DNA of 64,000 bases from an archaeon (GCA_043801855.1 JAZDLQ010000019.1:384-64383); one strand, 5' to 3'; shown: positions 1,532 through 64,000, numbered from the stretch's first letter. Numbers and translations are program-made. Notes: a model not told the origin generated them from the sequence alone.

Positions 1532-1542
1532 CAGGTGTTTCA

Positions 1543-2100: not shown

Positions 2101-2110
2101 TCAAACCATC

Positions 2111-2983: not shown

Positions 2984-3024
2984 ACAATAGAATTATATTA
3001 TTAAACAAAATTAAATGAATTAAG

Positions 3025-3225
3025 ATGGGGCAGGAACAGGTTTATCATTTTTTACAGAACAATAGAACCACATGGTACACAACTAAAGACATTGCAACAA
3101 AATTAGATGCATCAGTTGGCTCTGTTACAACTAACTTAAAAAAACTTAGAGACTCTGGCCAGGTGGAATACAAAAGTTCTGATATGAGGGTAAGCCAGTT
3201 TTTATACAAATGGAAAAAACCATAA
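3025..3225 (+). CDS. Small winged-helix DNA-binding protein
   Basis: WYTTKDIATKLDASVGSVTTNLKKLRDSGQVEY is a typical wHTH recognition-helix and wing pattern. Confidence 0.5.
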   Translation: MGQEQVYHFLQNNRTTWYTTKDIATKLDASVGSVTTNLKKLRDSGQVEYKSSDMRVSQFLYKWKKP

Positions 3226-3227
3226 AA

Positions 3228-3494
3228 TCATCTTGCTAAAAAATTTATAAAAACAAACCATAGAATCCCAAGAACAAGGACAATTTTACCATTTGTGCAT
3301 ATCGCCCATATAAGTGCATCTTTTAATGTAATGTTTGAATGTTCGCTGTATTTCATGTATAATGCAGTTATAAAACAGAAAATTATCAGTGGATTTAAAA
3401 TGCCAATGATGCCAATTACAAAAAATATCCAATTACCGCCTTTAAGGTCGATTTTCCATTTATTTGGTTCAACAGACCATAATGTTTGAATCAT
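3228..3494 (-). CDS. Small hypothetical membrane protein
   Basis: 88-aa ORF with 2-3 hydrophobic helices. It is preceded on the minus strand by a possible 41-aa ORF (3497-3622, MNFIELYEELEAK...). No family recognised. Confidence 0.3.
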   Translation of the reverse strand: MIQTLWSVEPNKWKIDLKGGNWIFFVIGIIGILNPLIIFCFITALYMKYSEHSNITLKDALIWAICTNGKIVLVLGILWFVFINFLAR

Positions 3495-3763
3495 TTTTAT
3501 TGAAATAATTTTTTATGCAATTCATTCCATGCTTTAGCTTTAGCCTCATTATGATGATAACCTTGTTTAATGTATTCGTAAGTTTTCGCTTCAAGCTCTT
3601 CGTAAAGTTCAATAAAATTCATTTTTATTGTGCTCTAAAAGAGTAATATTTGAACGAACAAGTATAAATAATTATCTAAAATATATACAAAATGCATAAT
3701 TTTTTCAATTTTATTATATATTTTATATAAAAGATTAAAAAATAGTGAATTCTTGAGATGGAG

Positions 3764-4252
3764 TTATGAAATATTTTCTATAATAACTTCTGAATGAGAA
3801 ACATCTGCACCTTTAGATCTTAAGAATTTCTCAATTTCCTTAAAATCATCAATTTCTCTTACAATTATATCTGCTCTGAATGAATTTTGATAGCATCTTT
3901 TAATATCAGTAATTGCCGGATGTTTCTTAAGAATGTCCAGTAAGGTGTTTTCGTCTTTCCCATTATATTTTAATTCCACTTCAATAATTTTAAAACCAAG
4001 AGCAAACGGATTTAATTTCCATGTTGACGTTATAATTTTATTTTTTTGAAGCCTTTCAAAGTTTGCATTAACAGTAATCCTTGATAAGCCAGTTTCCTTT
4101 GCCATTGTGCTCATGACAAGCTTATCATTTTTTAGGCTTAGCAGATATTTTATTATTTTTTTCTCAGAATTATTTATCTCTGCACCTTTCTTTTTTTCTT
4201 CAAAACCAAGCAAATCATCAACTTCTGCTTTTTTATCATTTATTTTTTTCAT
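3764..4252 (-). CDS. Lrp/AsnC-family transcriptional regulator
   Basis: HTH segment MSTMAKETGLSRITVNANFERLQKNKII, followed by a RAM/ACT-like C-terminal domain (FKIIEVELKYNG...IIVREIDDFKEIEKFL). Confidence 0.65.
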   Translation of the reverse strand: MKKINDKKAEVDDLLGFEEKKKGAEINNSEKKIIKYLLSLKNDKLVMSTMAKETGLSRITVNANFERLQKNKIITSTWKLNPFALGFKIIEVELKYNGKDENTLLDILKKHPAITDIKRCYQNSFRADIIVREIDDFKEIEKFLRSKGADVSHSEVIIENIS

Positions 4253-37900: not shown

Positions 37901-37951
37901 TGGAAAGACTTTATTGTGGAAATGCTTGAGCAGGAAGGGCTCTGGCCATAA
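34904..37951 (+). CDS. N6-adenine DNA methyltransferase fused to an SNF2-family helicase
   Basis: MTase motifs VLDNSMGSGRL and LINPPFSL. Helicase motifs WQQGLGKTKLG (I), VIVDEAHYLSN (II), LMTGTPIGN (III), TDTGLNIPQANIAII (V) and QAYSRILRPQT (VI). Confidence 0.8.
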   Translation: MSQTSLFEFSNKSLLPQIIQESEQEIIKEVKQERKILRIEPSGKTYTQLNTEIKLSIHNETWHKDDLIKYYEGLGIEIKSENGILGLHNAREKNLGQFFTPLWASKLIVELLSIPCNATVLDNSMGSGRLAWHLPNKKLFTGIEYEAQAYEVAKRVYPDSCIIQDNLVNHVADNRFDYVLINPPFSLNLKSLHGNLIHISYGGGVLSQVAAMEIGLRAVKDRGYLAAILPENVWKLESTRVLHRWIKENSQEIARIRLPKSTFIGTEWRTTLFIFHKTSWNSDSTVEPFTDELSSEQDTPLVIGRFQQTVFNRDVIDYSVSRNSREPVILEKLSKAEEAIQSINKRKLSWNSENPRVLVTSVKNRLHFMPNNALAAIKMENIKANFQVEYDYSLRDYADTLKKSLVLDKVWIGEKHIHELEIFTYFEKYGLDYEISPVLVNWLKKKKRFYNRESLAFEQWIKPTEESDWECRFDEDGIKTILGLYNHRQRIFRRCCKEFPHLNVLYDFQKDDLIRLSLKKSAIIAWQQGLGKTKLGIALAILKDCKKNLFIVPSHLKATWVKEFKNFGINAHIIEEKADISQLSMFNLITFNALKKKVDSRKTKFRTDKRSGKAVDKAKTFADILRKKFKFVIVDEAHYLSNKSTSQTKAVSKMKPRYWYLMTGTPIGNTVKNIYSLLDIGWKAGSPFFPYNTKQFREEFVTVEWVTPEFDDTLSKGRTAQQMADVKNVEVFVDLMKAKWLRRVKAEPEVQRCIAIPKPHIVDVQCKPEQEQLIHYKKHLEEFAVIFKRYMHPEEDKEHKVDQSIVLAMIQNLQFCSIIPQHPKVNPDEDFTYKGDKTTTQKKILELIKAHYAEGRKIILFTQRPDFCDLLGDWLKKENIESVVFTGKINIDKRNKRLDDFKYNGINVMLASINVTDTGLNIPQANIAIIAEADWKWSKIDQAYSRILRPQTKESPTVYCIHTNGTIDNYLWQHAYRKKDAIDEALEGREDIKKEKWVHWKDFIVEMLEQEGLWP

Positions 37952-48761: not shown

Positions 48762-51083
48762 CTATTCATTTTCCTGTGTAATTCTATGCTCATCTTTTTC
48801 TGGCATGAAAATTTTTTCTTTTGTCAATGGTAATATACATTTATCAATATCTGGTGATGTGATGTACCCATCATTCATATTTATGAGTTGTTCAAAAGCA
48901 ATTTCAAATTCCTTGTTCCTTTTTTCTAGGACGTCATAATTGTCTTTGTCTTCAACAAGTGATCCTAATTTTATCAATTCATCGAGATTTATGCAGCAGA
49001 ATTTAATTGACTCCAATCTTTTATATAGGTTACTACGATCTTCTTCCTTCTCTATTTTTTTCTGCAAAATTTGTTTTATTTTTAAAAAATCATCTTTGTG
49101 AGTATTTGATGTAACAAAAAGATAGTAACCCAATTTACCTTCTTCATAAGTATTCTCCTGGGAAATAGATTTTAAAATATATTTAATGTCTTTGCCGATT
49201 CCTCCTTTGTTTTTATTTGCGTATTTACTAAGCTTGGTATCATCATATCTCTTTGCATCCCAAAGCGCAAATTTTTTATCGTCTTTGTTAAATCCTATGA
49301 TTCCATCAGGTAAATTTTTTCCTCCCCATTTTGCTGAACTGGAAAACAAATAGCTTAACACATTGAATGTCAACCATTCAAATTCGTTTCCTTTTCTGGA
49401 GTTTACTAAAAGCGTGTTTTGTTTTTTAAAGCTCCTTAATTTATTTAGAGACTCCAAGAATGCCACTTCTTTCTTCTCAGTGTATTTTGTATCCATTGCA
49501 GCTTTCTTAATTAAATCAATAATACTAGCACTATCAGCAGTATATACTACCTCAACAAAGTCAGACGCGTCTATCTGATGTATATATTTAAGATCATTTT
49601 TCATTTCGCCTCTAAAATTAACAACAAAAAGTGGTAATGGGCAGAGCCTGAAGTTGTTAAGGACAGGCTCGTACAAACCTGTGAGGTTTAAATATATGTT
49701 AATTTCTGGCAAGCCTGCTATTACAACTTTTTGTAGCTCGAATTGATTATCATAAAATGCTTTTTTTAGTCTCCGATATCTGATTTTGCTTTTCATTAGT
49801 TTTTTCTTAAAGTCATCCTTTAGCTTATTAAGGTCATAACTAAATCGTAAACCATTTGGTATTCTAATAGGGTGTTTATTTCCACAAGTAGGGCAAGTCT
49901 TTGTCAAAAAGGCAGATCCTTTGCATTTCCTTGTGTGCCAGCAAATATATAGATATCTGTCAGTTTTATCTTTAATTAAGCCTAGTGTGTCCAATTGCTT
50001 TATAACTAGAGAGTATGCTTTGTTTGCCAACTCGTCCTTTTTAATGCAACAAGACATGAAAAGTTCTTGCATTAAATTTTTGCTTGGAATATTGTCCGCA
50101 TCAACAATTTTTGTTCCAATCGGTAAATCAAGTAATTCCAGTTCCTTTATTAGATTTGCATCCTTGTTTGTACTTAGTATTCTAGGCAGAATGCCATCTT
50201 CGCTGTACTCAAATTTTATAAAATTATATCGACCATCTTTCCTTCGGATTTTAAGGTAGTCAATATATGAAAGATTGAATTTGTCTGGATTTAGTATCTT
50301 TTTTTGATCCAAAAGAGCTCTAAGATATTCTCTTGCATCTCTATCTTTTGGTTTAATGACAATTTGATCCCCATTGGCAAAATCTGTTCTTTTCAACCCA
50401 ATCTCAACAAGTTCTAGATTTGTTGCTGACATTATTTTTTGAGTAAATGAATTCCAAAAAATATCTTTGTGCAACATAGTAGGAACAAACTCTGTTCTTG
50501 TCTCTTCCTGTAATACTAAATTGAAATAATATAAAACCTTAGGCGGAATGTGATTTATATATAGATGGTGATTCTTCTTGTCAAGATAGACTGCAGATAG
50601 AAAATTTATAGCTTTGTCATCGGGTTTAATCAGGTTATGAATTCCAACCTTTGATCCCTTTCTTAAGACATAAATGATTGTAAGTACGTAAGTTTCGCTG
50701 CTCCAGTGAAACTTAACAGCATATTTGTCAGTCTCAAAAATTTTAGCTGTTCTCCTGCACGACCTTCTTACTTGCCGAATAAATTCGTCATTGGAGAATG
50801 TTTCATCTACTTTAAAATCATAATGATCTTCGTCATTATTTGCAAAAAAGGTTTTATAATGAGCATAAAGGATTGAACTTTGTAATGGATATCCTTCCTT
50901 ATATGAGGGTTCCACTGTTTTTATCAATTCCATGTTGTCTTGTATATAATCCTTGATCTCCTGAAGAGTAAATTTGGTGCCATAGCCCAGCCTTCTAAAT
51001 ACCTCAATAAGACCCTTTTCCTGGGTGGATAATTTAAAATCTTTTTTCTTTACCATAATAGTTATCCGCATGAATGCTGACAT
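48762..51083 (-). CDS. Large nuclease with N-terminal wHTH-like regions, a central zinc ribbon and a FokI-like C-terminal cleavage domain
   Basis: CWHTRKCKG...CPTCGNKH. C-terminal NEFEWLTFNVLSYLF..WGGKNLPDGIIGFNKDDKKFALWDAKRY..YYLFVTS parallels FokI ILEMKVMEFFMKVYG..GGSRKPDGAIYT..GVIVDTKAY..FLFVSG (FokI sequence from memory). Confidence 0.6.
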   Translation of the reverse strand: MSAFMRITIMVKKKDFKLSTQEKGLIEVFRRLGYGTKFTLQEIKDYIQDNMELIKTVEPSYKEGYPLQSSILYAHYKTFFANNDEDHYDFKVDETFSNDEFIRQVRRSCRRTAKIFETDKYAVKFHWSSETYVLTIIYVLRKGSKVGIHNLIKPDDKAINFLSAVYLDKKNHHLYINHIPPKVLYYFNLVLQEETRTEFVPTMLHKDIFWNSFTQKIMSATNLELVEIGLKRTDFANGDQIVIKPKDRDAREYLRALLDQKKILNPDKFNLSYIDYLKIRRKDGRYNFIKFEYSEDGILPRILSTNKDANLIKELELLDLPIGTKIVDADNIPSKNLMQELFMSCCIKKDELANKAYSLVIKQLDTLGLIKDKTDRYLYICWHTRKCKGSAFLTKTCPTCGNKHPIRIPNGLRFSYDLNKLKDDFKKKLMKSKIRYRRLKKAFYDNQFELQKVVIAGLPEINIYLNLTGLYEPVLNNFRLCPLPLFVVNFRGEMKNDLKYIHQIDASDFVEVVYTADSASIIDLIKKAAMDTKYTEKKEVAFLESLNKLRSFKKQNTLLVNSRKGNEFEWLTFNVLSYLFSSSAKWGGKNLPDGIIGFNKDDKKFALWDAKRYDDTKLSKYANKNKGGIGKDIKYILKSISQENTYEEGKLGYYLFVTSNTHKDDFLKIKQILQKKIEKEEDRSNLYKRLESIKFCCINLDELIKLGSLVEDKDNYDVLEKRNKEFEIAFEQLINMNDGYITSPDIDKCILPLTKEKIFMPEKDEHRITQENE

Positions 51084-51132
51084 TGATGTTGTTGATGAAG
51101 GATACAGCCTCTCATGAGAAGCCTTTGGTTAA

Positions 51133-51161
51133 TTGAAACATCCTTGTTTTTCATGTTTCAA
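51133..51161 (-). terminator. Hairpin TTGAAACAT-N11-ATGTTTCAA overlapping the stop of the Cas4-like gene
   Basis: 9-bp arms at 51133-51141 and 51153-51161. Confidence 0.4.
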
Positions 51162-52117
51162 CTTTCAAATAAATCGCTTGCAAAAACCGAGTCACCGCCA
51201 TTTGGATAACATATTTTTTTATATTTGCAAACCTGGTTTCCTGCAAGGCATCGTGTTTCGTTTAAAGGATAATTTTCAATTGCTGCAATATTATTTACAG
51301 GATCAACAAGAAGTGATTTCATTGCAGAAATACCGTTTTTTATAATTGTTTTACAGGATTCAATATCTGCTTCGTTTACTATTCTTTCTTCTGGTTCAGA
51401 CATTCTATTTAGATTAAACAGAACAACTTTTATTTTGTCTAAAGGAAATTTCCATTTGTCAAGGCAATATAACGCATAAACGTTTAGCTGCAGCTTCTCT
51501 TTTTCTTCATCACTGTTATTACCTGTTTTCCAGTCATAAATATGAACTTCATCTGTTCTAAGCCTTGCAAAATCAATTTTTAAGTAAATCTGTGTTCCAT
51601 CAAGCATGAAAGACTGGGGCTTATCATCATCTATAAACCTGTATTCTGAGATTGGAATGGCTCTAACATGTGCATAAAAATCTGACTGTAAAAAATTCAG
51701 GATGCATCTTGTAGCCCTATCAAAAATTAATGCAATATCCCTTTCTTCAACTAAAAGATGGTACTCGTGGCACAATAGACTGCATGATTTTCGCTTAACT
51801 TTATATAACCCAGCTTCTGAACTTCGCATATCTGCCTTCATTTTATTGACCATTGATTCAACCAGTGCATCCGGGTTTATAGACATTTTAGATCTTGTTT
51901 TAATAAGGATTTGCCGTATCTGGTCGTGAATAACTTCTCCAACCCACATCTCCAGCGGTTTCATGTTCTTTAACATATCAATCTGCTTTACTTCTTCAGT
52001 TGCGCCTGATTCCCATGCACCCCAGAAGCCATACTTGTCATAATAGTATTTTCTCCTGCATTCATTAAACGCTTCCTGAGTTGATTTCGACCATGAAAAT
52101 GTGTTTGTAAAAACCAT
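51158..52117 (-). CDS. Cas4/RecB-like PD-(D/E)XK nuclease with a Cys cluster
   Basis: FNECRRKYYYDKY, LKIDFARLRTDEVHIYDWKTG, QLNVYALYCL and C-terminal CLAGNQVCKYKKIC. Confidence 0.65.
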   Translation of the reverse strand: MVFTNTFSWSKSTQEAFNECRRKYYYDKYGFWGAWESGATEEVKQIDMLKNMKPLEMWVGEVIHDQIRQILIKTRSKMSINPDALVESMVNKMKADMRSSEAGLYKVKRKSCSLLCHEYHLLVEERDIALIFDRATRCILNFLQSDFYAHVRAIPISEYRFIDDDKPQSFMLDGTQIYLKIDFARLRTDEVHIYDWKTGNNSDEEKEKLQLNVYALYCLDKWKFPLDKIKVVLFNLNRMSEPEERIVNEADIESCKTIIKNGISAMKSLLVDPVNNIAAIENYPLNETRCLAGNQVCKYKKICYPNGGDSVFASDLFES

Positions 52118-52194
52118 GCTAAATTACAAATCTTCATTAATATTTAAATATATCTATACAATATTATAGAATAGTTAGATTTATATAGAATTAA

Positions 52195-53280
52195 ATGTTT
52201 CTAACTGTTATGGCTAGGAGAACTAAAGAAAAACTTCTCATTGATATTCTTGACCAGCTTAAACAAAGGGAGAGTAGCATCAACGACTTGGTAAAAGACT
52301 CAAATTGGTCTACAATCAGAGATGCTGTATATCTTTTGAAAGAGCTTGGCCTTGTTGATATCAGAGAAGAAAAAAATGCGCAAGTATGTTCACTAAAGAA
52401 GGGGGTAGATGTAGATATGGAGGGAACTGTCAACAGTAACACATTATTTAAAATTCCTATAACTGAGGAACAAAATAACCTGTTTTCTTTTGTTTTTTCA
52501 GAGATTAAAAAAAAATTCATTGAAAAATGGAACCGCGAGCCAAAAACAACCGAAGCAGAAAAAATTGCGGCTGAAGTTATTTATGATATGAAATTAAATC
52601 TGCCTATAGGATGGTATCTGCATGGGATGATACCTGCAAAAAAATATGAAACTTCACAGATTTATGTGTTTAAAGAACCTGTTAATCACAAAGAAATTAA
52701 TAAAGAAATCCATAAAAAAATAGAAGAGTATGGAAAATACCAATATATTAATGACTTGATAAGGGCGCAATACAAAAAGCATCAGAATAAATTATACCAA
52801 ATAAAAGAAGAACTCAAAAAAATAATTATGCCATCAGTTGACCTTAATAACCTTGAAACAAAAACAACTCTGTTAAAATTTATGAGGCATTTATTGTTTG
52901 AGCTGCCAAGAAAAGAAGATGCATCGGAATTATGTGAAATCGTTAATAATTATGTAAGCATCATGGACGAGATTTTCTTAAGCAGCATCGACTTAAACCA
53001 GTACAAAGTTGACTTGTTTACAACCTTTGAATCTATCTGGCAGTACATTGCCACGTATAATTTTTTTGATTCATTGGCTGAATATTACGATAGGATAATC
53101 CTATACCGATATTTTTATTCTCCATTAGAATCTGCTAAAGATGTTGCTGTTGAAAGTGTAAAAATATTGGCAGACCTGTGCCCTCCGTTAAAAGAAATGC
53201 CTGAACTGAATATTGAATCAGATACCGAGGAAATAATCCGTAAGTCATACCAGGATATGCAGATGACTAAAGAGCAATAA
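52195..53280 (+). CDS. Hypothetical protein with an N-terminal wHTH
   Basis: ILDQLKQRESSINDLVKDSNWSTIRDAVYLLKELGLVDI. The remainder is helical with no motif. Confidence 0.45.
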   Translation: MFLTVMARRTKEKLLIDILDQLKQRESSINDLVKDSNWSTIRDAVYLLKELGLVDIREEKNAQVCSLKKGVDVDMEGTVNSNTLFKIPITEEQNNLFSFVFSEIKKKFIEKWNREPKTTEAEKIAAEVIYDMKLNLPIGWYLHGMIPAKKYETSQIYVFKEPVNHKEINKEIHKKIEEYGKYQYINDLIRAQYKKHQNKLYQIKEELKKIIMPSVDLNNLETKTTLLKFMRHLLFELPRKEDASELCEIVNNYVSIMDEIFLSSIDLNQYKVDLFTTFESIWQYIATYNFFDSLAEYYDRIILYRYFYSPLESAKDVAVESVKILADLCPPLKEMPELNIESDTEEIIRKSYQDMQMTKEQ

Positions 53281-53293
53281 CAGAGACTATAAA

Positions 53294-53947
53294 ATGGATG
53301 CAATAATCAAAGAAGGCGACATATTGTTTCTTGACACTGGCGTTATTTTCGGTTATGCAGCTGAAAATGACACTTTTTCTACTATATGCAAAGATTTCTT
53401 TTTTACCTACAAAAATAAGATGATTACATGCAAATATATCACTGATAAAGAATTGCCAAAACTTCTTGAACGAAGAAGGATTCTAAGAGAAGAAGTCAGG
53501 ATAAAACTTTGGGATAGTTCATTCCAGATAGGAAGGTCTCCTAAACTCAAACAGCGGGATATCGATATAGGCAATAAATTATGCAAGCTGAAAAACCAGC
53601 AGGGAATGACTGCTGAGAAAATTTATTCAATGCTGCATAAGATAGACACCACAATTGAGCAAAGGGTAAAATTCATCTTAGATAACCATATTTCAGAGAG
53701 TGTACTATTGATTGAAAAGATTAATATTAAACTGCGGGATCATATTCATGCTGGACTTGGAAATTTTGATGATGCAAATATTATGGCAAGTGCTTTGCAG
53801 CATAATTCTGTTTCTGCACTGAAAGTAATTACGACAGACAATAATGACTGGCCCAAAGTGCATGAAATAATGAAAACATATAAAGAAAAATGTGATGTTC
53901 CTGAAATTTATTATATTAAGGATTTGAAAATTGAGAAAATATCTTGA
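53294..53947 (+). CDS. PIN-like nuclease domain protein
   Basis: ILFLDTGVIFGY (first Asp), GNFDDANIMASAL and KVITTDNNDW (distal acidic residues). Confidence 0.5.
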   Translation: MDAIIKEGDILFLDTGVIFGYAAENDTFSTICKDFFFTYKNKMITCKYITDKELPKLLERRRILREEVRIKLWDSSFQIGRSPKLKQRDIDIGNKLCKLKNQQGMTAEKIYSMLHKIDTTIEQRVKFILDNHISESVLLIEKINIKLRDHIHAGLGNFDDANIMASALQHNSVSALKVITTDNNDWPKVHEIMKTYKEKCDVPEIYYIKDLKIEKIS

Positions 53948-55115
53948 TAAGAAAAAAAAATTGAAACCTCTTACTGAATTAATTTCTGAGTTGGATGTAG
54001 TATTTAATAGCAATTTAACTTTTTATTTTCAATTTAAAAAAGACTTTGAAGCATCTGCAAAGCAGAAAACAGAGGTATGGAATTCTGATTGGACAACTTA
54101 TACGGATTTAATTGAAAAAAACATGGTACTACTAAACTCCATTTTAATCCTAAGAAGAAATAGAGAGTACAACTCTGCTCTGTCAAGTTTAAGAGCAGCA
54201 TTTGAAAATATGCTTTTCTATAGACTGTATATTAATGGTAAAAAAGCCTATGCATATCGAATTTACAATATAAAACCTGAAAAAAATGAGAATCCTATTG
54301 CAAGAGACATAACATTAAAAAAATGGTTAATTGAACTAAAAAGATGGAAAGACACCAAAGATAATGCTTTAAAAAATTATGAAAATACAGTGGAAATCAC
54401 AAAAATGTATAAAGATAAAATTATGATTAAATTATATTTAGAAGGTGTATATGAAATCAATGATACAGAAAAGAAAAGACATTGGATGACTTATTATCAA
54501 ATGATTTTTCACGAATATGATCCTATAAACCGTTTTACTGGTGATTTACCAACAATCAAAGAGAATATGATGTTCCCGGAAATTGTAGAAGAAAAAACAA
54601 AGATTAACAAAATATTATATGATAGACATTTTAATTTTGAAAAAGGTTTATTAGCTGCATGGGAGCTTAACGGATTTGTAAATCAAATACAAAAAGATAT
54701 TGTAAGAGTGCATTATAATTTTTTAAGTCTTTTTGTTCATCCGAATAAATATCAGAATAGCATCTTAGCATATGAAATAGATTATAATAATACCAAACTG
54801 CCTCAAATAAAAGAAGATAAAGTAATAGAGCTATTAATTACGTTGTACATTATAAAAATCCAAGAAATTTTATTAAATACAATTTTTGATAGACTTAGTG
54901 GTATATGTAAAATATCATCATTTGAGGATTTTTCAAACCAGTTAAAAATAAATTGTTCTTTAGCTGATTTACTATGGTTTATTTATGATGAACCTACGGA
55001 TAAAGATAAAGAGTTTTTCAACACAATGAAAGTCTTTAACAAGTCTACAAAAAAGACTGTTGGATATTACGATAATCCATTAGAAAGGTTAAAAAAAGTA
55101 TTTGGATACAGATAA
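53931..55115 (+). CDS. Hypothetical helical protein (weak AbiV/DUF5677-like N-terminus)
   Basis: TTG start overlapping the PIN gene by 17 nt. LILRRNREYNSALSSLRAAFENMLFYRLY. No catalytic motif recognised. Confidence 0.4.
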   Translation: MRKYLDKKKKLKPLTELISELDVVFNSNLTFYFQFKKDFEASAKQKTEVWNSDWTTYTDLIEKNMVLLNSILILRRNREYNSALSSLRAAFENMLFYRLYINGKKAYAYRIYNIKPEKNENPIARDITLKKWLIELKRWKDTKDNALKNYENTVEITKMYKDKIMIKLYLEGVYEINDTEKKRHWMTYYQMIFHEYDPINRFTGDLPTIKENMMFPEIVEEKTKINKILYDRHFNFEKGLLAAWELNGFVNQIQKDIVRVHYNFLSLFVHPNKYQNSILAYEIDYNNTKLPQIKEDKVIELLITLYIIKIQEILLNTIFDRLSGICKISSFEDFSNQLKINCSLADLLWFIYDEPTDKDKEFFNTMKVFNKSTKKTVGYYDNPLERLKKVFGYR

Positions 55116-55381
55116 TAATTTGATTATATAGAGAAGGACAAATTAGTGTGAGTAATAATATATCTCTTCGAAAATTATGCACGCTAATGCATTTTTCTTC
55201 AGAAAAAACAGTTTGCTAAAAAAGAGTAAAAATTTCGACGGGAGAGAATATTCGTAAAGAATAATTTCACACTTCCCCCAGTTCATCCAATCCCTTAAGT
55301 ATTTTATTTTCCAGTTCAATTATTTTCTTTTTAATTATTTCAGGCTTTTAGTGGCAATAATCCACTTTAGGTAATCGTCTA

Positions 55382-58300
55382 TCAAAGATTATTGGATGTG
55401 TCTATCCACCTATCAGATAGAACCTCAGCTTGTTCTAAAACTAAATCTGTGGCAATTTTTTCTTTATCAGGAGGATAACCATATTTCTTTAGTAATTTAC
55501 GAATTTCCACCCTTAATTTGGCCCTCACTGATTCTCGTATTTTCCAGTCAATAGAAGTATTTCTTTTTATATAATCAGTTAATTCCCTTGCAATCTTTTT
55601 TAAAACAAGTTCTCCTAAAATATTCTTTGCACTTTCATTATCTGCAAGCGCATCATAGAAAGCAACTTCTTCATCTGTAAGTCCCAGTTCATCTCCTCTT
55701 TTTTTTGCATCCCTGACTTCTTTTGCTAATTCAACAAGTTCTTTAATAACCTGTGCTGAATCAATACTTTTATTCTGATACTTTCGGATTGCCTCTTCAA
55801 GCATCTCAGAAAATTTCTTATTCTTGATTTTGTTCTCTTTAAATCTTACCTTGATTTCGTCATACAGAAGGTTTTTTAATGCTTCAAATGCAAGGTTTTT
55901 GTAAGGCATTGTCTTGAATTCATCCAAAAATCTGTCCGATAATATTGAAATCTCTGGCTTTTCAACTCCAAGTTCTCTATAAATATCAATTATTCCATGT
56001 GATTCTATAGCTTTGGAAACAAGTTGTTTTATTGCTGTATCAGTTAATGTTGTCCTTCGGGTTTCTTCAGTATCAGTTTTCTTGAAAGCGTTTGATATTG
56101 CTTGAAATAGAGCAGCTTCTTCTCTAATTTTCTGTGCTTCTTGTGTAGTTGCTGCAAGCGATAATGCACGGATTAAACCACTTGTGTTTTTAACAAATCT
56201 TTCTTTTCCTTTATCTTGCTTTAATATAAAATCCAACATCTCAGGTACTATTCTCATCTTTTCTTTAGATGAAGCATCAAAAAACTTTTTGTATGGGTAG
56301 TTATGAAGCATGCCCGTTATTATTTCATACTTTTCCATCATTAATGAGACAGCTACACTAATGTCATATGAAGGTTTACCTTCTCCACCACTTTGGGAAT
56401 AGACAGAAATTGCTTTCTTAAGTTCCTCTGCAATTCCTATGAAATCAACAACTAATCCCCCTGTTTTCTCTTTGTATACTCTATTTACTCTGGCAATTGC
56501 CTGCATTAAATTATGATGTCGTATTGGCTTATCCAGATACATTGTATTGAGAGATGGAACATCAAAACCTGTCAGCCACATATCTCTCACAATAGCAATT
56601 TTAAAATCAGAGGATGATTCTTTAAAGAGTTCTGCCAACTCCCTTCTCTTTTGTTTAGTTCTTATATGTTCCTGCCATTTATTGCCATCAGCAGCAGACC
56701 CAGTCATAATGACTTTTATCTTTCCTTTGTCATCTTCCTTATTATACCAATCAGGTCTTACCTTCTTAATTGCATCATGCAAATCAATACAGATTCGTCT
56801 ACTCATACAAACAATTAGAGCTTTACCATCAAGAACACTTTGCTTTAGTTCAAAATGTCTAACAATACTCTGAGCAATTGTTTCAATTCTTTTATCAGTT
56901 CCAACCAATGCTTCAATGGTGCTCCATTTTGATTTTAGATATTGTTTATTGTCCTGTTCTTCAAACTCTGTAACATCTTCAATATCTTCGTCAAGCTGTT
57001 TAAAGATATCTTCATTTTTGCCTAGTTTTACAAGTTTAGATTCATAGTATATTGGAACAACTCGTTTGTCTTCAATAGCAACGTGCATGTCGTAAATATC
57101 AATGTAAGTTCCAAAGATTGCCCTTGTGCTTTTGTCTGCCATATCAATAGGTGTTCCTGTGAATCCTAAGAATGAGGCATTTGGTAAGGCATCTCTTAAG
57201 TACTTGGCAAATCCATATCTTAGTTTTTGGTTTTTGTTAAACTTCCCCTTGAAACCATATTGAGTTCTATGCGCTTCATCTGCAACCACAATTACATTAT
57301 CCCTGTTTGAAAGAAGTTCAAACTCCGATTCCTCTTTGTCATTAAACTTCTGTATTGTTGTAAAGAATATTCCTCCAGAAGAAACTTTAAGAGATTTTTT
57401 TAACTCGGATTGTGTATTAATCTTTTTTGGCTCTTCCCTAAATATTTGACCATAGTTTGAGAATGTATTAAAAAGTTGGTCGTCAAGGTCATTCCTATCT
57501 GTTATAACAACAATTGAAGGATTCTTCATTTCAGGAGTTCTTGTAATTTTACCAACATAGAAAGCCATTGTTAAGGACTTTCCTGATCCCTGAGTATGCC
57601 AAACTACACCTATCTTCTTATCTCCTGCTAATGCTTTGATGGTTTTATCAATGGCTTTATTGGCAGCATGGTACTGATGGTATCCTGCAATTACTTTAAT
57701 TGCATCTTTTTTTGTTTGCTGCTCATAACCTATAAAATTTCTAATCAAATCTATTATAACATTCTTATTGCACATCCCCTTTAGAACAACTTCAAGCTGT
57801 GGAACACTTTTAGGTATTCTTTTTCTGCCATCTATTGTTCGCCAAGGCATAAACCATTCCCAAGAGGAAGTCAGAGTTCCTACTTTGGCATCCGTGCCAT
57901 CGGCAATTATGATAAACTCATTGTGTGTAAATAGAGCGGGAATTTCTGTTAAATATGTCTGTATTTGCTCATATGCTGACCTTACAGTAGCAGTTGCAGA
58001 AGCAGGGTTTTTTAGCTCAATAAGCCCTATTGGAAGACCATTAATAAACAAGACAACATCAGGCCTTCTGTTATGCTCATTTTCAATAATAGTGAATTGA
58101 TTTATGGCTGTAAAATCATTTTTTTCTGGCTTTTCAAAGTCAAATAGCTTGACAATAACGCCTTTGATTCTATCTTTCTCTCTTACTTCAACTTCAACAC
58201 CATTAACTAAGAAATTGTGGAACTTTTCATTGTTTGCAATAGTCTTATGGCTTGTTGTTCTTGTAATCTTTTTAATTGCCTCATCTAAGGCTTCTTTTGT

Positions 58301-58486
58301 CAATGTAGGATTAATCTCTTTGAGTGCTGATTCAAGTCTATCATTGAGGACAACATCGTCCCATTTAGCTCTTTTTGGCTGTTCAGAATCAGGCGCAATG
58401 TCTGGTCCATATACTATGTCATAACCAAGTTCATACAGTATCTCTAATACTGCATTTTCAATATCCTGCTCAACGATAAATGACAT
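55382..58486 (-). CDS. hsdR: Type I restriction enzyme R subunit
   Basis: 1034 aa. N-terminal EQDIENAVLEILYELGYD, motif I HTQGSGKSLTM, motif II VVADEAHRTQYG, plus TGTPI and QAIARVNR. Confidence 0.9.
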   Translation of the reverse strand: MSFIVEQDIENAVLEILYELGYDIVYGPDIAPDSEQPKRAKWDDVVLNDRLESALKEINPTLTKEALDEAIKKITRTTSHKTIANNEKFHNFLVNGVEVEVREKDRIKGVIVKLFDFEKPEKNDFTAINQFTIIENEHNRRPDVVLFINGLPIGLIELKNPASATATVRSAYEQIQTYLTEIPALFTHNEFIIIADGTDAKVGTLTSSWEWFMPWRTIDGRKRIPKSVPQLEVVLKGMCNKNVIIDLIRNFIGYEQQTKKDAIKVIAGYHQYHAANKAIDKTIKALAGDKKIGVVWHTQGSGKSLTMAFYVGKITRTPEMKNPSIVVITDRNDLDDQLFNTFSNYGQIFREEPKKINTQSELKKSLKVSSGGIFFTTIQKFNDKEESEFELLSNRDNVIVVADEAHRTQYGFKGKFNKNQKLRYGFAKYLRDALPNASFLGFTGTPIDMADKSTRAIFGTYIDIYDMHVAIEDKRVVPIYYESKLVKLGKNEDIFKQLDEDIEDVTEFEEQDNKQYLKSKWSTIEALVGTDKRIETIAQSIVRHFELKQSVLDGKALIVCMSRRICIDLHDAIKKVRPDWYNKEDDKGKIKVIMTGSAADGNKWQEHIRTKQKRRELAELFKESSSDFKIAIVRDMWLTGFDVPSLNTMYLDKPIRHHNLMQAIARVNRVYKEKTGGLVVDFIGIAEELKKAISVYSQSGGEGKPSYDISVAVSLMMEKYEIITGMLHNYPYKKFFDASSKEKMRIVPEMLDFILKQDKGKERFVKNTSGLIRALSLAATTQEAQKIREEAALFQAISNAFKKTDTEETRRTTLTDTAIKQLVSKAIESHGIIDIYRELGVEKPEISILSDRFLDEFKTMPYKNLAFEALKNLLYDEIKVRFKENKIKNKKFSEMLEEAIRKYQNKSIDSAQVIKELVELAKEVRDAKKRGDELGLTDEEVAFYDALADNESAKNILGELVLKKIARELTDYIKRNTSIDWKIRESVRAKLRVEIRKLLKKYGYPPDKEKIATDLVLEQAEVLSDRWIDTSNNL

Positions 58487-58488
58487 TT

Positions 58489-59109
58489 TTATTTCTCTTT
58501 AGGTTCTTCTAAATTATTTTTATCTAATACTTCATCCTCAAGTTTTCTTAATTTTTCTATTATACTTAATTTATCCAGTTCTGCATCTTGATTTGCAATA
58601 ATATAATCTGTCATATTAAGATTACTTATTTGACTTAAAATTATTGAATTAGCATCTGTATTTAATGGATTCCAAAGAACTACATCGCATTCAATACTAT
58701 AGGGTGAATTTGTCCCAAACGCCCAAGAAGTCATATTACTGCTCCCTATAATTGTAATAATATACTCTGAATTTTTTTTTAAGAAATATATTTTTGCATG
58801 CCATTTTTGTTTGGAAGTGAATGCAGTATAATTAACTGTCCCTACAATACTTTTCATAACACTAACAAAATTTAGATATTTATACATCCAAATTTTATTA
58901 TATACTCCTATTGTTGTTAATTTAATGTTATTTGCCTTAATATTGTTTGCGAAATTTCCTTGTTGGCTTAATTTGAACTTATTCCCTTCAGAGAAAAATC
59001 CTGAACAAATAGTAATATTTACATCTTTAAATGAAGTGATTGACTGTAAAATTATTTGTCTAAATATATTGGGAGATGCTTGTTTTCGTAAAATAAATAA
59101 TATTTTCAT
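58489..59109 (-). CDS. PLD-superfamily (single HKD-like motif) nuclease embedded between hsdS and hsdR
   Basis: WHAKIYFLKKNSEYIITIIGSSNMTSWAF has the HxK...GSxN pattern (the conserved Asp position is Lys). Abuts hsdS with no gap and lies 2 nt from hsdR. Confidence 0.6.
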   Translation of the reverse strand: MKILFILRKQASPNIFRQIILQSITSFKDVNITICSGFFSEGNKFKLSQQGNFANNIKANNIKLTTIGVYNKIWMYKYLNFVSVMKSIVGTVNYTAFTSKQKWHAKIYFLKKNSEYIITIIGSSNMTSWAFGTNSPYSIECDVVLWNPLNTDANSIILSQISNLNMTDYIIANQDAELDKLSIIEKLRKLEDEVLDKNNLEEPKEK

Positions 59110-60441
59110 TTATACCTCATTAGGAACTCTAATTTTTCCAGACATCAGTTTTGGAAGAAGGGAATCACGGATTTGAATCAATGTCTTAAATTCATGAGTA
59201 TTATTTTCTATTTTTTTAAAATATGATGATACAATATTGGAAAATTGGAGCATACTTTTTTTAGGTGGTAAAAGAATTAAGGTATTATTAATTTCAGCTT
59301 TTCCTATATTCTGCTGGGCGGATTGTGTTTGTTTTGACAAAATTGTATTTAAAAAATTGATTGAACTAATTAAAAAATATAAATAATCTTGAGAAAGAAT
59401 AGCATCATTCTTTGAAATAAATTTACCTACACGATAGTTTTGTAGTATTTCTTCTTCTGGTTCATAATAGCGTGCATATTTACCAATTGTCGCACCTGTT
59501 AAAGCCATTAAAATATCCCCTGAGTGAATTCGGATATTCTCAAATTTTGAAAGTCTTTTTCTATCAACAAAATCACATGAAGACAAATCTATTTCTCCAT
59601 TATCATTTATTTGAGTGATTTTAAAAACTTTAACACCCTCATTCGTAAAATCATAATGTCTAAATTGATATCCATGTATTAAGTCAGCAACCTCATCAAA
59701 AGAAATTATTTTCCATTCCTTAGGTATTTCTCCTAATTCAGAATCAATGGTCTCTCCACCTGATGATTTATATGGCTTTCCTTCTACATTTGGAAATTCA
59801 AAATCTATAAACCAATGCTTAAATATGGCTTGACCAATTGCTTCTAATGTTTTATTCATTTGCTGGTTTAGTTCTATTTTAGAATCAATGGCAGAAAGGA
59901 TTTTGGCGATTGATTCTTGCTCTTGAATATTAGGGTAAGCAAAAGGAAGTTCTTCAAAATCTCTTTGATATAAATGTGGAATTACAGAACCTTCTTTACG
60001 TGTTTCAATTAACCACTTAAATAAAGGTAATTTAAAAAAATAAAATAGAAATTTCTGGTCAATTTCACCTGATTTAGCCCTTATAACAAAGATACCAGAA
60101 GCAACACTTGATTTTTCGGGTAATTTCTCAATAAATGCAACCTTACCTATAGTTCCATCTTTAGTCATAACAATATCATTTTCTTTTAATTGAATTTCAG
60201 GAGATTCATCATATCTCCATTCGGGAACTCTTCCACAATCTGACCAATCAAGCCTATTATCTTGTATTTGTGTTCCATTAATAATGACAATTCCAGAACC
60301 ATCTGTGAGATACTCTGATTTTTGTAGTCCTTTCCACCCAATTCTTCCTTTTATATACAAGTGCTTACTTAAAATATCATAATTCCAATCTTCAGGAATC
60401 TCTCCTATTTCAGTTTGTTTGAGTTTTATTTTTTGATTCAT
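59110..60441 (-). CDS. hsdS: Type I R-M specificity subunit (two target-recognition domains)
   Basis: 443 aa with a duplicated TRD architecture (IGEIPEDW... / LGEIPKEW...) and conserved helical spacers (ESIAKILSAIDSKIE, IQIRDSLLPKLMSGKIRV). Confidence 0.85.
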   Translation of the reverse strand: MNQKIKLKQTEIGEIPEDWNYDILSKHLYIKGRIGWKGLQKSEYLTDGSGIVIINGTQIQDNRLDWSDCGRVPEWRYDESPEIQLKENDIVMTKDGTIGKVAFIEKLPEKSSVASGIFVIRAKSGEIDQKFLFYFFKLPLFKWLIETRKEGSVIPHLYQRDFEELPFAYPNIQEQESIAKILSAIDSKIELNQQMNKTLEAIGQAIFKHWFIDFEFPNVEGKPYKSSGGETIDSELGEIPKEWKIISFDEVADLIHGYQFRHYDFTNEGVKVFKITQINDNGEIDLSSCDFVDRKRLSKFENIRIHSGDILMALTGATIGKYARYYEPEEEILQNYRVGKFISKNDAILSQDYLYFLISSINFLNTILSKQTQSAQQNIGKAEINNTLILLPPKKSMLQFSNIVSSYFKKIENNTHEFKTLIQIRDSLLPKLMSGKIRVPNEV

Positions 60442-61075
60442 CTGATTTAATTCTATTCATTAGTAAAGTTAGATTATGCTCATAAGATTTAATTGGTCCA
60501 AAATAATTGGAAAGATATGTTCTTGTCTCGGATTTTATTAACTCAGACTGATAATTAATCTTCAAATGATATAACATTGCCAAAACAACATCAACGGAAG
60601 TAACTTGTTCAGCTATCTTTTTTCCTCTTTTATCATGTGTTCTTTTTAAAATACCTATTACTAATAAGACTGAAAGCATAGCTAACCCACCAATAATTGT
60701 AACCCATTTTATAGTAGATGTAACACCAACTACGGCACTTGTTACTGTTGTTAATTTTGAAATAGTAGCCGATACTTGACCTTCTAATAAACCATTTGAT
60801 TGCGTCAAAGAAGTAATATCTGATAAGGAAGAAGCTAATAGTGTGTTAATTGTGTTTGAGAATAAAGTAACAGCACCCAAACTTATTGTAAGGATAATGT
60901 TAATTATTAACAGGTTTTCATTGCTTGACTGAAATTTATTCTGCAGATTCATCTCAAATGTCAAATGATACTCTTCTCTTTCGTGCTGAAAATACTCTAT
61001 TAAATTATCTATATAATTAGTATCAGTTTGACCTATTGTATTACTCTTTTTGTTTTTCTGTTTCTTTGTGTTCAT
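60410..61075 (-). CDS. Two-TM membrane protein of unknown function inside the type I R-M operon
   Basis: TM helices LLIINIILTISLGAVTLF and WVTIIGGLAMLSVLLVIGIL, separated by a Ser/Thr-rich loop. The 3' end overlaps hsdS by 32 nt. Confidence 0.5.
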   Translation of the reverse strand: MNTKKQKNKKSNTIGQTDTNYIDNLIEYFQHEREEYHLTFEMNLQNKFQSSNENLLIINIILTISLGAVTLFSNTINTLLASSLSDITSLTQSNGLLEGQVSATISKLTTVTSAVVGVTSTIKWVTIIGGLAMLSVLLVIGILKRTHDKRGKKIAEQVTSVDVVLAMLYHLKINYQSELIKSETRTYLSNYFGPIKSYEHNLTLLMNRIKSDESKNKTQTN

Positions 61076-61108
61076 GCATTTCTTCCTTATTTTTATTTAA
61101 ATATTGCC

Positions 61109-61966
61109 TCATTTTGAAATTATAATTGATAAGAGATATATCCAAAATGAGAGTATTATTGCAGGAATACCTGTTGTAAGCATGTAGTATCCAGAATTAA
61201 TTAATGTTCGTTTGATTTTTCCAAGCTTATTTAATTCAGTTAGTTTGTCAATAAACATTTCTGTTATTGACTGCGAGCTCATATATCCATGTTCTGGCAA
61301 GCATGCTTCTCTATTTTCTGGAGCAACAACGTATTCAACTAATGATTTTCCACCTCCTTGGTTGCAGTGTATCTGATAGACATAATCTTTTGCATACTTT
61401 GGATTATCATACCTACAATAATCAGCTATTGTGTTAGAGTCAATAACAAAACCATGCCTTCTTCCATGTCCAAATAAATATACCGTTCTGATATGTTTAT
61501 TTTCCATTATTTCATCTAAGGTTGCTTGATTTATTTCGTTATATATTGCATAATCTTCATTCTTTTCTTTTAGATATTTTAATACTAAAATTAAATCTAA
61601 TTCAAAATTTGGGTTAAACCAATAGCTTGGTCGCTTGTAATCTGTTTTCCCTATAACTACAACTGTTTTTGCAGGAGTATTTTTTTTACAACTCCATGTA
61701 TATGCATAAACAATTATTGCACATGCAACAGAATTTAATACTCTGAAAGGTAAAAGAACCAAAAAAAAGACTATTGAAATGAATGCAGGAATTAAAAATA
61801 AAATAGGAAGAGCATTAGAAATGTTTGTGACTTTTTTAAATACATAAAAAATAAAAAAAGATATGACCAAGAAATAAAATGCCAATGAAATCATATCTGG
61901 CTTATTTTTTATATAATACTTTGATTTGTCTGATTCCTTCTTTGTATCTGGATTATTGTTTTTCAT
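61109..61966 (-). CDS. Polytopic membrane protein with a soluble domain carrying a caspase-like His/Cys signature
   Basis: Three N-terminal TM helices and one C-terminal TM. VVVIGK...RTVYLFGHGRRHGFVI...YVYQIHCNQGGGKS. Start taken at ATG 61966; the ORF opens at 62113. Confidence 0.45.
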   Translation of the reverse strand: MKNNNPDTKKESDKSKYYIKNKPDMISLAFYFLVISFFIFYVFKKVTNISNALPILFLIPAFISIVFFLVLLPFRVLNSVACAIIVYAYTWSCKKNTPAKTVVVIGKTDYKRPSYWFNPNFELDLILVLKYLKEKNEDYAIYNEINQATLDEIMENKHIRTVYLFGHGRRHGFVIDSNTIADYCRYDNPKYAKDYVYQIHCNQGGGKSLVEYVVAPENREACLPEHGYMSSQSITEMFIDKLTELNKLGKIKRTLINSGYYMLTTGIPAIILSFWIYLLSIIISK

Positions 61967-62633
61967 TTTGGGAGTGTTGATGATGATGAAACTCTTGTTT
62001 AAGCATTTCATTATATATTTTGATTTCAAGTTTTTTTCTTTGGTTTCTAAATTGCCAGTAATTTTCAATATTATAATCCTTCGAGTTGCGACTATAGGAA
62101 TAGAAATCTCCAAAAATTTTAACTAATTCAATTCCTACAAGAGAGAAACTTAAAGCAATAAAAAAATTAAGTATTAACCTGAAATTGAAAATGTTTATGA
62201 ATGTTCTTAAATCTTTCGTATCAATATTTTGAACATATGAAGGTTCAATTATTTTTACATTTTCTTCAACTGCACTCACTCTATTAGATATTGATTGAAT
62301 TTGATTATTGTTTTCCTCAACTTGAGTTTTAAGAGAAAAAATCTCAGTTCTAATGTCTTTAATAGTGGTATCTTTAATTTGATTAGTTTCCATTATCGTA
62401 ACTTTCTCATTCAACATTTGAATAGCATTTTTTTGAGAATCTATAGAGCCAATTATTGTGTCTGTTTTGCTCCTTAATTCTTGGCTTATTTCATCTTGAT
62501 TTCTTGTAATAGGTGTTAAATCAATATTTTTTGTGCCTATTATACCAAGAATAATTAATACAATAAAAGCAACTATTACAATCATTGCTCTATTACTGAA
62601 TATACTAATGTTAGCTTTTCTATTCATATCCAA
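61953..62633 (-). CDS. Bitopic membrane protein with a coiled-coil segment and a His-rich tail, inside the type I R-M operon
   Basis: [19 protein letters not shown], a long heptad-like segment, a second [18 protein letters not shown], and the tail EFHHHQHSQ. Overlaps the hsdM stop by 10 nt. Confidence 0.5.
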
Positions 62634-64000
62634 TACCCTATCTTTTCCAGATTCTTTTTAATTTCTTCATCAAGCTTCCTTCCTGCTTGCATCTGCTTGG
62701 CAAGGTCTGATGTAAACCTTTTCATTTTCTCATCAAAAACTTCTAGGTCTTCTTCCTCTTCTTCTGCACCTACATATCTACCAGGTGTTAATATGTGAGA
62801 ATGTTTTCTTATCTCTTCGAGCTTAGCAGATTTGCAGAATCCAAGGACATCTTCATAATTGCCACCTTCTCCTCTCCAAGAATGATATGTGGCTGCAATC
62901 TTTTTAATCTCGTCATCAGTGAGTTCTTTATGCCTTCTATCATACATAATACCCAACTTACGAGCATCAATAAACAAAAACTCTCTTTCTCTGTTCCTAA
63001 ATTTGTGATTCTTCTTGTCTCTTGAAATAAACCACAAACAAGCAGGAATCATTGTGTTATAAAATAATTGAGATGGCAAAGCAACCATACAATCTATTAA
63101 ATCAGCCTCTACAAGATTTTTTCTAATATCCCCCTCTCCACTTGTGTTTGAAGACATTGAACCATTTGCTAAAACTATGCCTGCTGTTCCTGTTTGTGAT
63201 AAGTGATGTATCATATGTTGAAGCCATGCAAAATTGGCATTTCCAACAGGAGGAACACCATACTTCCACCTGACATCTTCTCTTAGGTATTCTCCACCCC
63301 AATCAGAAATATTAAAAGGAGGATTCGCAAGGATAAAATCTGATTTTAAATCTTTGTGATTGTCTTTATGAAATGTATCTCCTAACATGATTTGCTTGCT
63401 CTCTATCCCTCTGATAGATAGATTCATCTTGCACAGTTTCCAAGTAGTAGGATTACTTTCTTGTCCATATATAGAAACATCATCGATTCTACCCTGATGT
63501 TCCTTTACGAACTTTTCAGATTGAACAAACATCCCGCCTGATCCGCAACAGGGGTCATATACTCTACCTTTGTATGGCTCAATCATTTCAACCAAAAGCC
63601 TAACTATACTTCGAGGAGTGTAGAACTGACCTCCTTTTTTACCTTCTGCATCTGCAAATTGCCCTAAGAAATACTCGTATACTCTACCAAGGATGTCTTT
63701 TTTCTTGCTCTCTTCGTCCCCTAATCCAATAGTTCCTATAAGGTCAATAAGCTCTCCCAATCTTCTTTTGTCTAATGCTGGTCTTGCATAATCCTTAGGT
63801 AGAACACCTTTTAATGAGGGATTCTCTTTCTCAATAAGTTCCATTGCATCATCGATAAACTTCCCTATCTCAGACAGTTTTGCTCTATCCTGAAGAAAAG
63901 TCCATCTTGCTTCTTTAGGAACCCAAAATACTCTCCTTGATATGTATTCGTCCCTTTCTTCAGGTCCAAGGCTATCTTTATCTTTTTCAAGTTCTTTGTA
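62624..64000 (-). CDS. hsdM: Type I R-M N6-adenine DNA methyltransferase subunit (5' end beyond the window)
   Basis: [22 protein letters not shown] and [13 protein letters not shown]. The frame stays open to nt 64000 ([33 protein letters not shown]), so the true start is off-window. Confidence 0.9.

Follow-up and report, generated by a model that had tools for sequence, protein, structure and literature searches.

Near the end of a 64,000-nt stretch of archaeal DNA (GCA_043801855.1, JAZDLQ010000019.1:384-64383; this whole stretch is called the window), a type I restriction–modification (R-M) operon contains four additional genes among its hsd genes. Three of these (riders A, B and C) encode membrane proteins and separate hsdM from hsdS, and the fourth encodes a small phospholipase D-type nuclease-like protein (PLD) between hsdS and hsdR. 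The reading that is favoured, by a modest measure, is that the type I operon is intact and that its hsdM/hsdS and hsdS/hsdR junctions are exchangeable cargo slots. These slots would hold at least two independently acquired passengers, for which an antiviral back-up role is inferred. The riders are seen as swappable antiviral cargo, and not as parts of a fixed seven-gene machine, because three of the four recur singly in the same slots.

With the window counted, rider B recurs at a like position in seven type I loci, rider A in three and PLD in two; rider B also occurs in one MmeI-like locus outside type I. As in known embedded defence genes, the riders are nested on the same strand between genes of one system, and the families of A, B and PLD recur in non-identical hosts. 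In the closest related operons (L025, L006 and L027), the same slots hold other cargo. Neighbouring cargo in related operons consists of known or candidate defence genes, namely an OLD/PtuA/AriA-like ATPase in L006, SduA in L003 and PDC-S54 in L027. Each rider is full length relative to its relatives and keeps the invariant residues of its family, which speaks against decayed fragments or a chance insertion.

The four-gene set as a whole is conserved in no other locus: A was not found with B, nor B with C, nor the trio with PLD. An earlier reading made from the sequence alone had presented the membrane trio and second nuclease as one fixed unit. That view is not supported, as tblastn and phmmer located neither A nor C at any other rider-B locus, and B and PLD also occur outside R-M loci. 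The same reading had allowed that the inserted genes might be absent from, or differently placed in, all related loci; this is the case for the set of four, whereas A, B and PLD taken singly do recur in place. It had also called the arrangement unfamiliar. As a category, embedded genes have already been catalogued (10.1101/2024.01.29.577857), and what is new is the cargo families.

The listing of open reading frames (ORFs) and the junction sequences give seven consecutive genes on the minus strand, in the order hsdM, A, B, C, hsdS, PLD, hsdR (Table 1). At the hsdM/A junction, the genes overlap by 10 nt if rider A starts at TTG, or share a 4-nt ATGA overlap with the hsdM stop codon if it starts at ATG, as in the deposited annotation. 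Riders A and B overlap by 14 nt, B and C are separated by a 33-nt gap, and the 3′ end of rider C overlaps hsdS by 32 nt. The hsdS/PLD junction measures 0 nt and the PLD/hsdR junction 2 nt. The sequence-only reading had reported this order and the same overlaps and gaps, and both were reproduced. Its seven-gene span to position 64000 stands as a layout, but hsdM is not complete: its reading frame continues without a stop to base 64000, and approximately 100 N-terminal residues lie outside the window, with the PADLOC profile match beginning at position 101. The tight gene spacing is evidence for co-transcription at most.

Table 1. Genes of the type I operon in the window, and gene orders at the related loci that carry rider A, rider B or PLD.
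Feature or locus	Coordinates	Strand	Description
hsdM	62624..64000	-	type I N6-adenine methyltransferase; 3′ 458 codons, N-terminus past window end
Rider A	61953..62627 (ATG start) or 61953..62633 (TTG start)	-	224 aa from ATG
Rider B	61109..61966	-	285 aa; predicted three-TM protein with cytoplasmic caspase-like alpha/beta domain
Rider C	60410..61075	-	221 aa; two-TM hairpin
hsdS	59110..60441	-	specificity subunit, two target-recognition domains
PLD	58489..59109	-	206 aa; small single-HKD nuclease-like protein
hsdR	55382..58486	-	restriction/translocase subunit; full length, 1034 aa
L003/L019			hsdM, B, SduA-like, hsdS, hsdR, YgjP-like
L006			hsdM, OLD/PtuA/AriA-like ATPase, B, hsdS, hsdR; hsdM 67% and hsdR 65% identical to those of the window
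L007/L018			hsdM, B, hsdS
L011			hsdM, B, hsdS
L016			B, hsdS, hsdR
L017			hsdM, B, hsdS
L001/L002			B between MmeI/Eco57I-type methylase and M_Eco57I_C protein
L022			B ~650 nt upstream of N6_N4_Mtase/ResIII pair (type III-like mod/res)
L004			B beside PglZ/SNF2/MTase/BrxC cluster
L012			B beside DUF4062-STAND NTPase and tubulin-SIR2 fusion
L005			B between ribosomal and RNase P genes; non-defence
L020			B near DsbD and Rce1-like genes; non-defence
L025			hsdM (73% identical to that of the window, closest found), DUF553 transglutaminase-like polytopic protein, 219-aa TM protein, rider A, hsdS
L026			hsdM tail, 138-aa HExxH (zinc-protease-like) protein, 268-aa TM protein, rider A, hsdS
L027			hsdS, PDC-S54 candidate (full-length, 1e-148), two small ORFs, PLD, hsdR

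The type I operon appears intact, and all three hsd genes look functional from their predicted products. HsdM matches Pfam N6_Mtase (4e-115) and PADLOC MTase_I (6e-190, profile positions 101–501), and its translation carries the NPPF motif and the S-adenosylmethionine-binding motif DPCCGSGG. HsdS contains two stretches of Pfam Methylase_S (2.6e-32) and matches PADLOC Specificity_I over residues 45–441 (2e-85). HsdR is matched end to end by PADLOC REase_I (E = 0 over residues 4–1026) and by the Pfam families HSDR_N (8.7e-49), SWI2_SNF2 (6.9e-77), T1R_D3-like and T1RH-like_C (4.7e-119). The N-terminal PD-(D/E)xK nuclease, superfamily 2 (SF2) motor and C-terminal domain of HsdR are all present, and a PD...ELK motif is readable in the translation of the hsd genes.

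For rider B, 13 informative, non-redundant loci were read, the window included. Seven are type I loci, in which rider B either separates hsdM from hsdS or directly adjoins one of the two, and three are other methylase-based systems. One further copy lies beside other defence genes, and two are in non-defence neighbourhoods. In L007, L011 and L017, rider B directly joins hsdM to hsdS, with neither A nor C present. Rider B copies keep 43–49% identity to that of the window over a range of about 30% to 67% for the partner hsdM; this flat identity across hsdM divergence suggests that rider B moves or evolves independently of its host operon. Judged from these predicted gene orders and the predicted topology, rider B holds a membrane-clamped domain and prefers the methylase/specificity junction. 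The site in L001/L002 is, from the predicted products, again a junction between a methylase and a specificity-type module.

At L001 (7288-13357), a 910-aa MmeI/Eco57I-type methylase and a 333-aa M_Eco57I_C protein flank rider B, and the pair looks like a split type IIG/IIL-like enzyme with rider B in the predicted gap. Next comes a 494-aa protein without assignment and, further downstream, M78 peptidase/DUF4411 genes and a PLD-SNF2 helicase. L012, from a Halobacteria metagenome-assembled genome (MAG), encodes at 6578-8278 (minus strand) a 566-aa fusion of a tubulin/FtsZ GTPase (1.2e-43) with SIR2_2, near the DUF4062-STAND NTPase.

Rider B contains hydrophobic stretches at residues 22–47, 47–89 and 261–285, and matching helices are present in an AlphaFold2 model with a predicted local distance difference test score (pLDDT) of 84.7. 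This model comprises transmembrane (TM) helices 25–47 and 53–90, an alpha/beta domain at approximately 100–245 and a C-terminal helix at 250–284. The turn between TM1 and TM2 is five residues long and contains no Lys or Arg, while basic sites occupy the N-tail and border the domain at K94-K95 and at K250, K252 and R253. By the positive-inside rule, both the N-tail and the domain are predicted from these charges to be cytoplasmic.

The rider B family numbers 34 proteins among 5.8 billion (word-indexed search). All are approximately 280 aa long and of archaeal MAG or metagenome origin, with 41–52% identity to the window copy and a median pairwise identity of 50%. Named sources include Methanosarcinales, Halobacteria, Heimdallarchaeaceae and Candidatus Ainarchaeum. 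Residues G166-H-G-x-R-H171, Y183-C184, Y197-Q-x-H-C-N202, P224, G227 and D240 are invariant across the 34 members. In the models, H167 of the GHG motif follows strand 161–165 and C201 of the QxHCN motif follows strand 195–199, and this modelled placement of His and then Cys at successive strand ends is the arrangement of a caspase.

Divergent relatives of rider B (20–32% identity) keep GHG, QxHCN and G206, whereas H171, C184, C222 and H226 are lost. This pattern of retention favours a His/Cys catalytic pair and disfavours a multi-ligand metal site. His167 and Cys201 are the candidate catalytic residues. A zinc site made of the His and Cys residues was accordingly rejected as the main reading, given that H167, H200 and C201 stay and those four residues do not.

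Foldseek found no significant match for the full-length rider B model, although caspases, gingipain and SAVED-CHAT recur in its list amid generic alpha/beta folds, together with PurE and REC. A model of the domain alone (pLDDT 75.4) returned caspases as all 50 of the top 50 PDB matches (caspases 3, 4, 6, 7, 8 and 11). These matches are weak, with E values of 1.8e-3 to 3.8e-2, probabilities of at most 0.98 and TMq of 0.34–0.48. In BFVD, the top matches are the executioner caspase of an ascovirus and the caspase domain of a giant virus. The models thereby lend weak support to a domain that is caspase-like at the level of the fold; clan CD membership is not established. The sequence-only reading had described rider B as a polytopic protein with a caspase-like domain: three TM helices are indeed predicted, and the caspase-like label survives weakly, through the fold and the invariant His/Cys pair.

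Searches of Pfam, NCBIfam, PADLOC 2.0 and PHROGs returned no credible family match for riders A, B or C, and PADLOC showed no credible homology of any of the three to an already listed embedded or defence family. A match of rider B to PDC-S19, at E of about 1e-3 in one of the 34 family members, was taken as chance, and a search of the supplement and full-text literature returned nothing on PDC-S19. A shorter paralogue of the rider B domain, one of the divergent relatives, is encoded at L004 (5961-6509, minus strand), 1.4 kb from the full-length rider B and beside the BREX-like cluster. The ORF of this 182-aa protein lacks the N-terminal membrane region and the C-terminal helix, and keeps both GHG and QxHCN.

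From hydropathy and charge, rider A consists of a basic N-tail, TM1, a heptad-patterned loop of ~108 aa, TM2 and a basic His-rich C-tail. The sequence-only reading had taken it for a bitopic coiled-coil protein, and the two membrane segments on either side of the loop correct this topology. Coiled-coil family matches to rider A were rejected as noise-level. Only four relatives were found among 5.8 billion proteins. Their loop length varies, and an invariant block surrounds TM2 (KxIEP..VQN.D...NIFNFRL..NFFIA.S.SL...E..K.FGDF).

All three readable loci of rider A (the window, L025 and L026) place it in the hsdM/hsdS slot, and in both L025 and L026 the homologue is directly upstream of hsdS. The three also share one make-up, in which rider A is accompanied by a protease-like protein and a further membrane protein. 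It is possible that these cassettes form a modular R-M-embedded family with caspase-like, transglutaminase-like and HExxH versions. The TM proteins of L025 and L026 are not significantly similar to rider C or to each other. The slot cargo of L025 spans 1447-3886; that of L026 lies at 202-2056, and none of its three proteins has a Pfam or PADLOC match.

Rider C has two hydrophobic segments, as in the sequence-only reading, and its hydropathy and charge indicate a hairpin with basic tails and a loop of about 46 aa rich in Ser and Thr. Only six relatives emerged when 1.84 billion representatives were searched exhaustively with HMMER; all are full length and 22–28% identical. Rider C was also considered as a holin and rejected: the PHROG holin matches are noise-level (E = 0.045 and 0.14 only), and the protein is 221 aa long against 93 and 97 positions in the much shorter matched profiles.

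The PLD protein matches Pfam RE_NgoFVII with 28.6 bits (cut-off 23.8 bits) and PLDc_2 with 19.1 bits, which is under the cut-off of that family. Across PLD and nine relatives (10 sequences), H104-A-K106, I-I-G-S-S-N125 (including G122-S-S-N125), E140 and D142 are invariant, and the predicted HxK...GSxN signature is that of an intact single-HKD motif. The PLD/HKD nuclease-like identity proposed in the sequence-only reading is thus upheld. Single-HKD proteins of the Nuc and BfiI kind work as dimers. PADLOC gave only a weak match of PLD to ZacB (2e-5 over 48 residues).

The closest relative of PLD, in L027, is 68% identical and directly upstream of an hsdR that is 61% identical to that of the window. 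This homologue (2372-2943) is split over two reading frames, owing either to a frameshift or to faulty assembly.

Passenger genes within type I R-M operons are a known category, and the novelty of the window lies in three unannotated and very rare archaeal families. In a survey of RefSeq genomes, Payne et al. (2024) counted 17,432 genes that lie inside BREX, DISARM or type I R-M systems; over half of them lacked a functional assignment, and the authors argued that most embedded genes are likely defences (10.1101/2024.01.29.577857). The ‘guilt-by-embedding’ HEC/PDC candidates of Payne, Hughes, Fineran and Jackson follow the same genomic logic, and PDC-S54 shares the hsdS/hsdR slot of L027 with PLD. 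Unlike these candidates, riders A, B and C have no PADLOC 2.0 model and belong to families known only from archaeal MAGs and metagenomes.

PrrC is an accessory gene among the hsd genes of a type IC R-M locus, co-expressed with them and seen as a back-up when restriction fails (PMC12707154). The riders share with PrrC (EcoprrI, and the related RloC) the status of a nested accessory gene in the same operon. PrrC is, however, a soluble tRNA nuclease of the ABC-ATPase type, and no rider resembles it. The two-gene, GmrSD-like TgvAB system lies in the type I R-M cluster of VPI-2 in V. cholerae and provides an independent, complementary defence (PMC11411939). Its genes, at first without an assigned function, similarly interrupt a working type I operon. 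TgvAB consists of cytoplasmic type IV restriction proteins (DUF262/DUF1524 class), whereas the present cargo is three membrane proteins and PLD and is archaeal.

Rider B resembles SAVED-CHAT, the TPR-CHAT of Craspase and gasdermin-activating proteases in its predicted alpha/beta domain, its His and Cys at strand ends and its defence-associated site. It differs from these clan CD immune proteases in that its domain is much smaller (~150 aa) and clamped between TM helices. Furthermore, it has no SAVED, TPR or NACHT sensor domain, and there is no gasdermin or obvious substrate gene. PLD is comparable to Nuc, BfiI and the N-terminal domain of NgoFVII through its RE_NgoFVII match and the HxK...GSxN signature in a protein of ~200 aa. 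It differs in having no DNA-recognition domain and in being a stand-alone protein wedged between hsdS and hsdR.

It is proposed that slot 1 (hsdM/hsdS) would hold the three membrane proteins, with rider B as its recurrent resident, and that slot 2 (hsdS/hsdR) would hold a small PLD nuclease acting as a dimer. The two N-terminal TM helices and single C-terminal TM helix of rider B may hold its caspase-like domain against the cytoplasmic face of the membrane, while riders A and C may form N-in/C-in hairpins with their loops outward. The passengers would be co-expressed accessory antiviral genes that back up restriction, like other R-M-embedded genes. Rider B could then be a membrane-tethered cysteine protease whose cleavage of host or viral proteins at the membrane would follow infection; growth might then be arrested, or entry or egress blocked. 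Riders A and C may be lineage-specific partners, sensors or substrates, and PLD may be a separate DNA-degrading effector. The analysis itself shows the gene order, intact genes, conserved families, recurring positions and a resemblance at fold level; what we infer comprises the protease activity, its trigger and targets, and any physical link to the R-M enzyme.

A bolder form of this proposal makes rider B a new archaeal, membrane-built, caspase-like immune effector that would act together with DNA methylase-based systems, always from the methylase/specificity junction. In this form, A and C would be surface-exposed hairpins recruited as sensors of virus attachment or DNA entry, and sensor, protease and restriction would act as one unit. 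Such an arrangement is considered decidedly unlikely.

Several observations weigh against the cargo reading. Co-transcription is no proof of functional coupling, and positional recurrence covers only A, B and PLD (three of the four riders), not C. The evidence for rider A comes from three loci only, and many contigs are short. Rider B is found in two neighbourhoods with no evident tie to defence, L005 and L020. Distant PLD relatives (28–43% identity) are mostly solitary and in bacterial contigs; one copy is on a viral-labelled contig, not beside hsd genes, and one is on a Komagataeibacter plasmid.

The caspase assignment of rider B, a model-based one, is weak (best Foldseek E 1.8e-3, TM-scores below 0.5). 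Searches for Peptidase_C14, CHAT, C11 and C13 profile matches returned none, and all 34 family members are without a Pfam match. The rider B profile retrieved nothing from PDB sequences at E <= 10. Alignment of the domain with human caspase-3 by hhalign was not significant, with a probability of 0.3% and only one 13-column helix match in a plausible register.

The main rival to the cargo reading is that proteases encoded within the operon control the R-M enzyme. As a dedicated protease, rider B would degrade HsdR or HsdM, or tether them, possibly at the membrane, and so alleviate restriction and prevent self-restriction in archaea without the ClpXP route; other protease-like genes in the same slot elsewhere would have the same role. 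Proteolysis of HsdR is an established form of control, as restriction is alleviated by ClpXP acting on EcoKI HsdR in E. coli (PMC4231737) and by Lon-like proteases in P. aeruginosa (10.1101/2024.10.21.619520). These operons also repeatedly contain protease-like genes, which represent four different folds: rider B in seven loci, a DUF553 transglutaminase-like protein in L025, a HExxH protein in L026 and a YgjP-like protein after hsdR in L003. Rider B is, moreover, always placed just downstream of the methylase gene, including beside a non-type-I methylase.

The restriction-alleviation proteases are, however, general housekeeping enzymes encoded elsewhere, and none that is in-operon and membrane-bound is described in the literature examined. 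Rider B also occurs without nearby R-M genes in L005, L020 and L012. Control of the R-M enzyme would leave the three TM helices of rider B without explanation and A, C and PLD unaccounted for, and most type I operons manage without such a gene. This explanation is unlikely, although no other alternative fares better.

It has also to be considered that the riders are non-defence passengers, either housekeeping or envelope membrane proteins or a selfish insert, tolerated in permissive slots of a horizontally mobile operon. The lower G+C content of the riders and hsdS (0.26–0.30) compared with hsdM and hsdR (0.33–0.37) fits this view, as do the ribosomal/RNase P and DsbD/Rce1-like surroundings of rider B in L005 and L020, and the lack of homology between any rider and any tested defence protein. 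Against it, 7 of 13 rider B contexts and 3 of 3 rider A contexts are type I operons, far above background expectation, and the cargo neighbours in related loci are defence-related. The region 55000-64000 has neither flanking repeats nor genes for a transposase or integrase, and its only repeats are AT-rich chance ones. Scans of viral contigs for A and B, and of the plasmid collection for B and C, were likewise negative. Tolerated non-defence passengers are quite improbable on this evidence.

Among the defence readings, the one with least support, for want of a conserved gene set, is an integrated R-M-coupled abortive-infection or membrane-effector machine of four riders and three Hsd subunits, and it is very improbable. 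In this machine, an A-B-C complex would be gated by the state of the R-M enzyme, as in the PrrC precedent of a rider controlled by its host enzyme, and PLD would be a second nuclease. The six junctions on one strand with overlaps or gaps of <=33 nt speak for it, as does the three-part make-up at every rider-A locus, which hints at a modular membrane cassette. Against it, no other locus has A and B together, or B and C, or the trio and PLD; rider B stands alone between hsdM and hsdS in L007, L011 and L017; the cargo of the closest related operons is different; and published embedded systems are mostly independent of the host system.

Elsewhere in the window, a second methylase-linked defence-type gene lies ~17 kb from the type I operon (34904-37951, plus strand). 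It encodes a 1015-aa fusion of N6_Mtase with an SNF2/ResIII helicase, and its PADLOC matches are ZorD, DpdE, DrmD-type helicases and mad2. Just downstream of hsdR, the region 48762-55115 may be a further defence-island stretch, to judge by its predicted products. It includes a 319-aa PD-(D/E)XK nuclease (51158-52117, minus strand), an adjoining 773-aa protein without a family match (48762-51083, minus strand) and, on the plus strand, proteins of 361, 217 (weak PIN match) and 394 aa without family matches. A 1601-aa ORF at 4825-9630 (plus strand) has a C-terminal DUF835 domain as its sole family match. No tRNA genes were found in the 64-kb window.

Archaeal antiviral immunity is far less explored than its bacterial counterpart, and most R-M-embedded genes are functionally unassigned. 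The locus supplies three unannotated protein families, for two of which, A and B, the link to type I R-M is statistical. With rider B, a membrane-clamped caspase-like protein would for the first time be linked to restriction systems. If rider B is an active protease, it would add either a proteolytic membrane effector to R-M-associated defence or a dedicated in-operon control of restriction, and either outcome would inform how layered defences are organised and how they spare the host.

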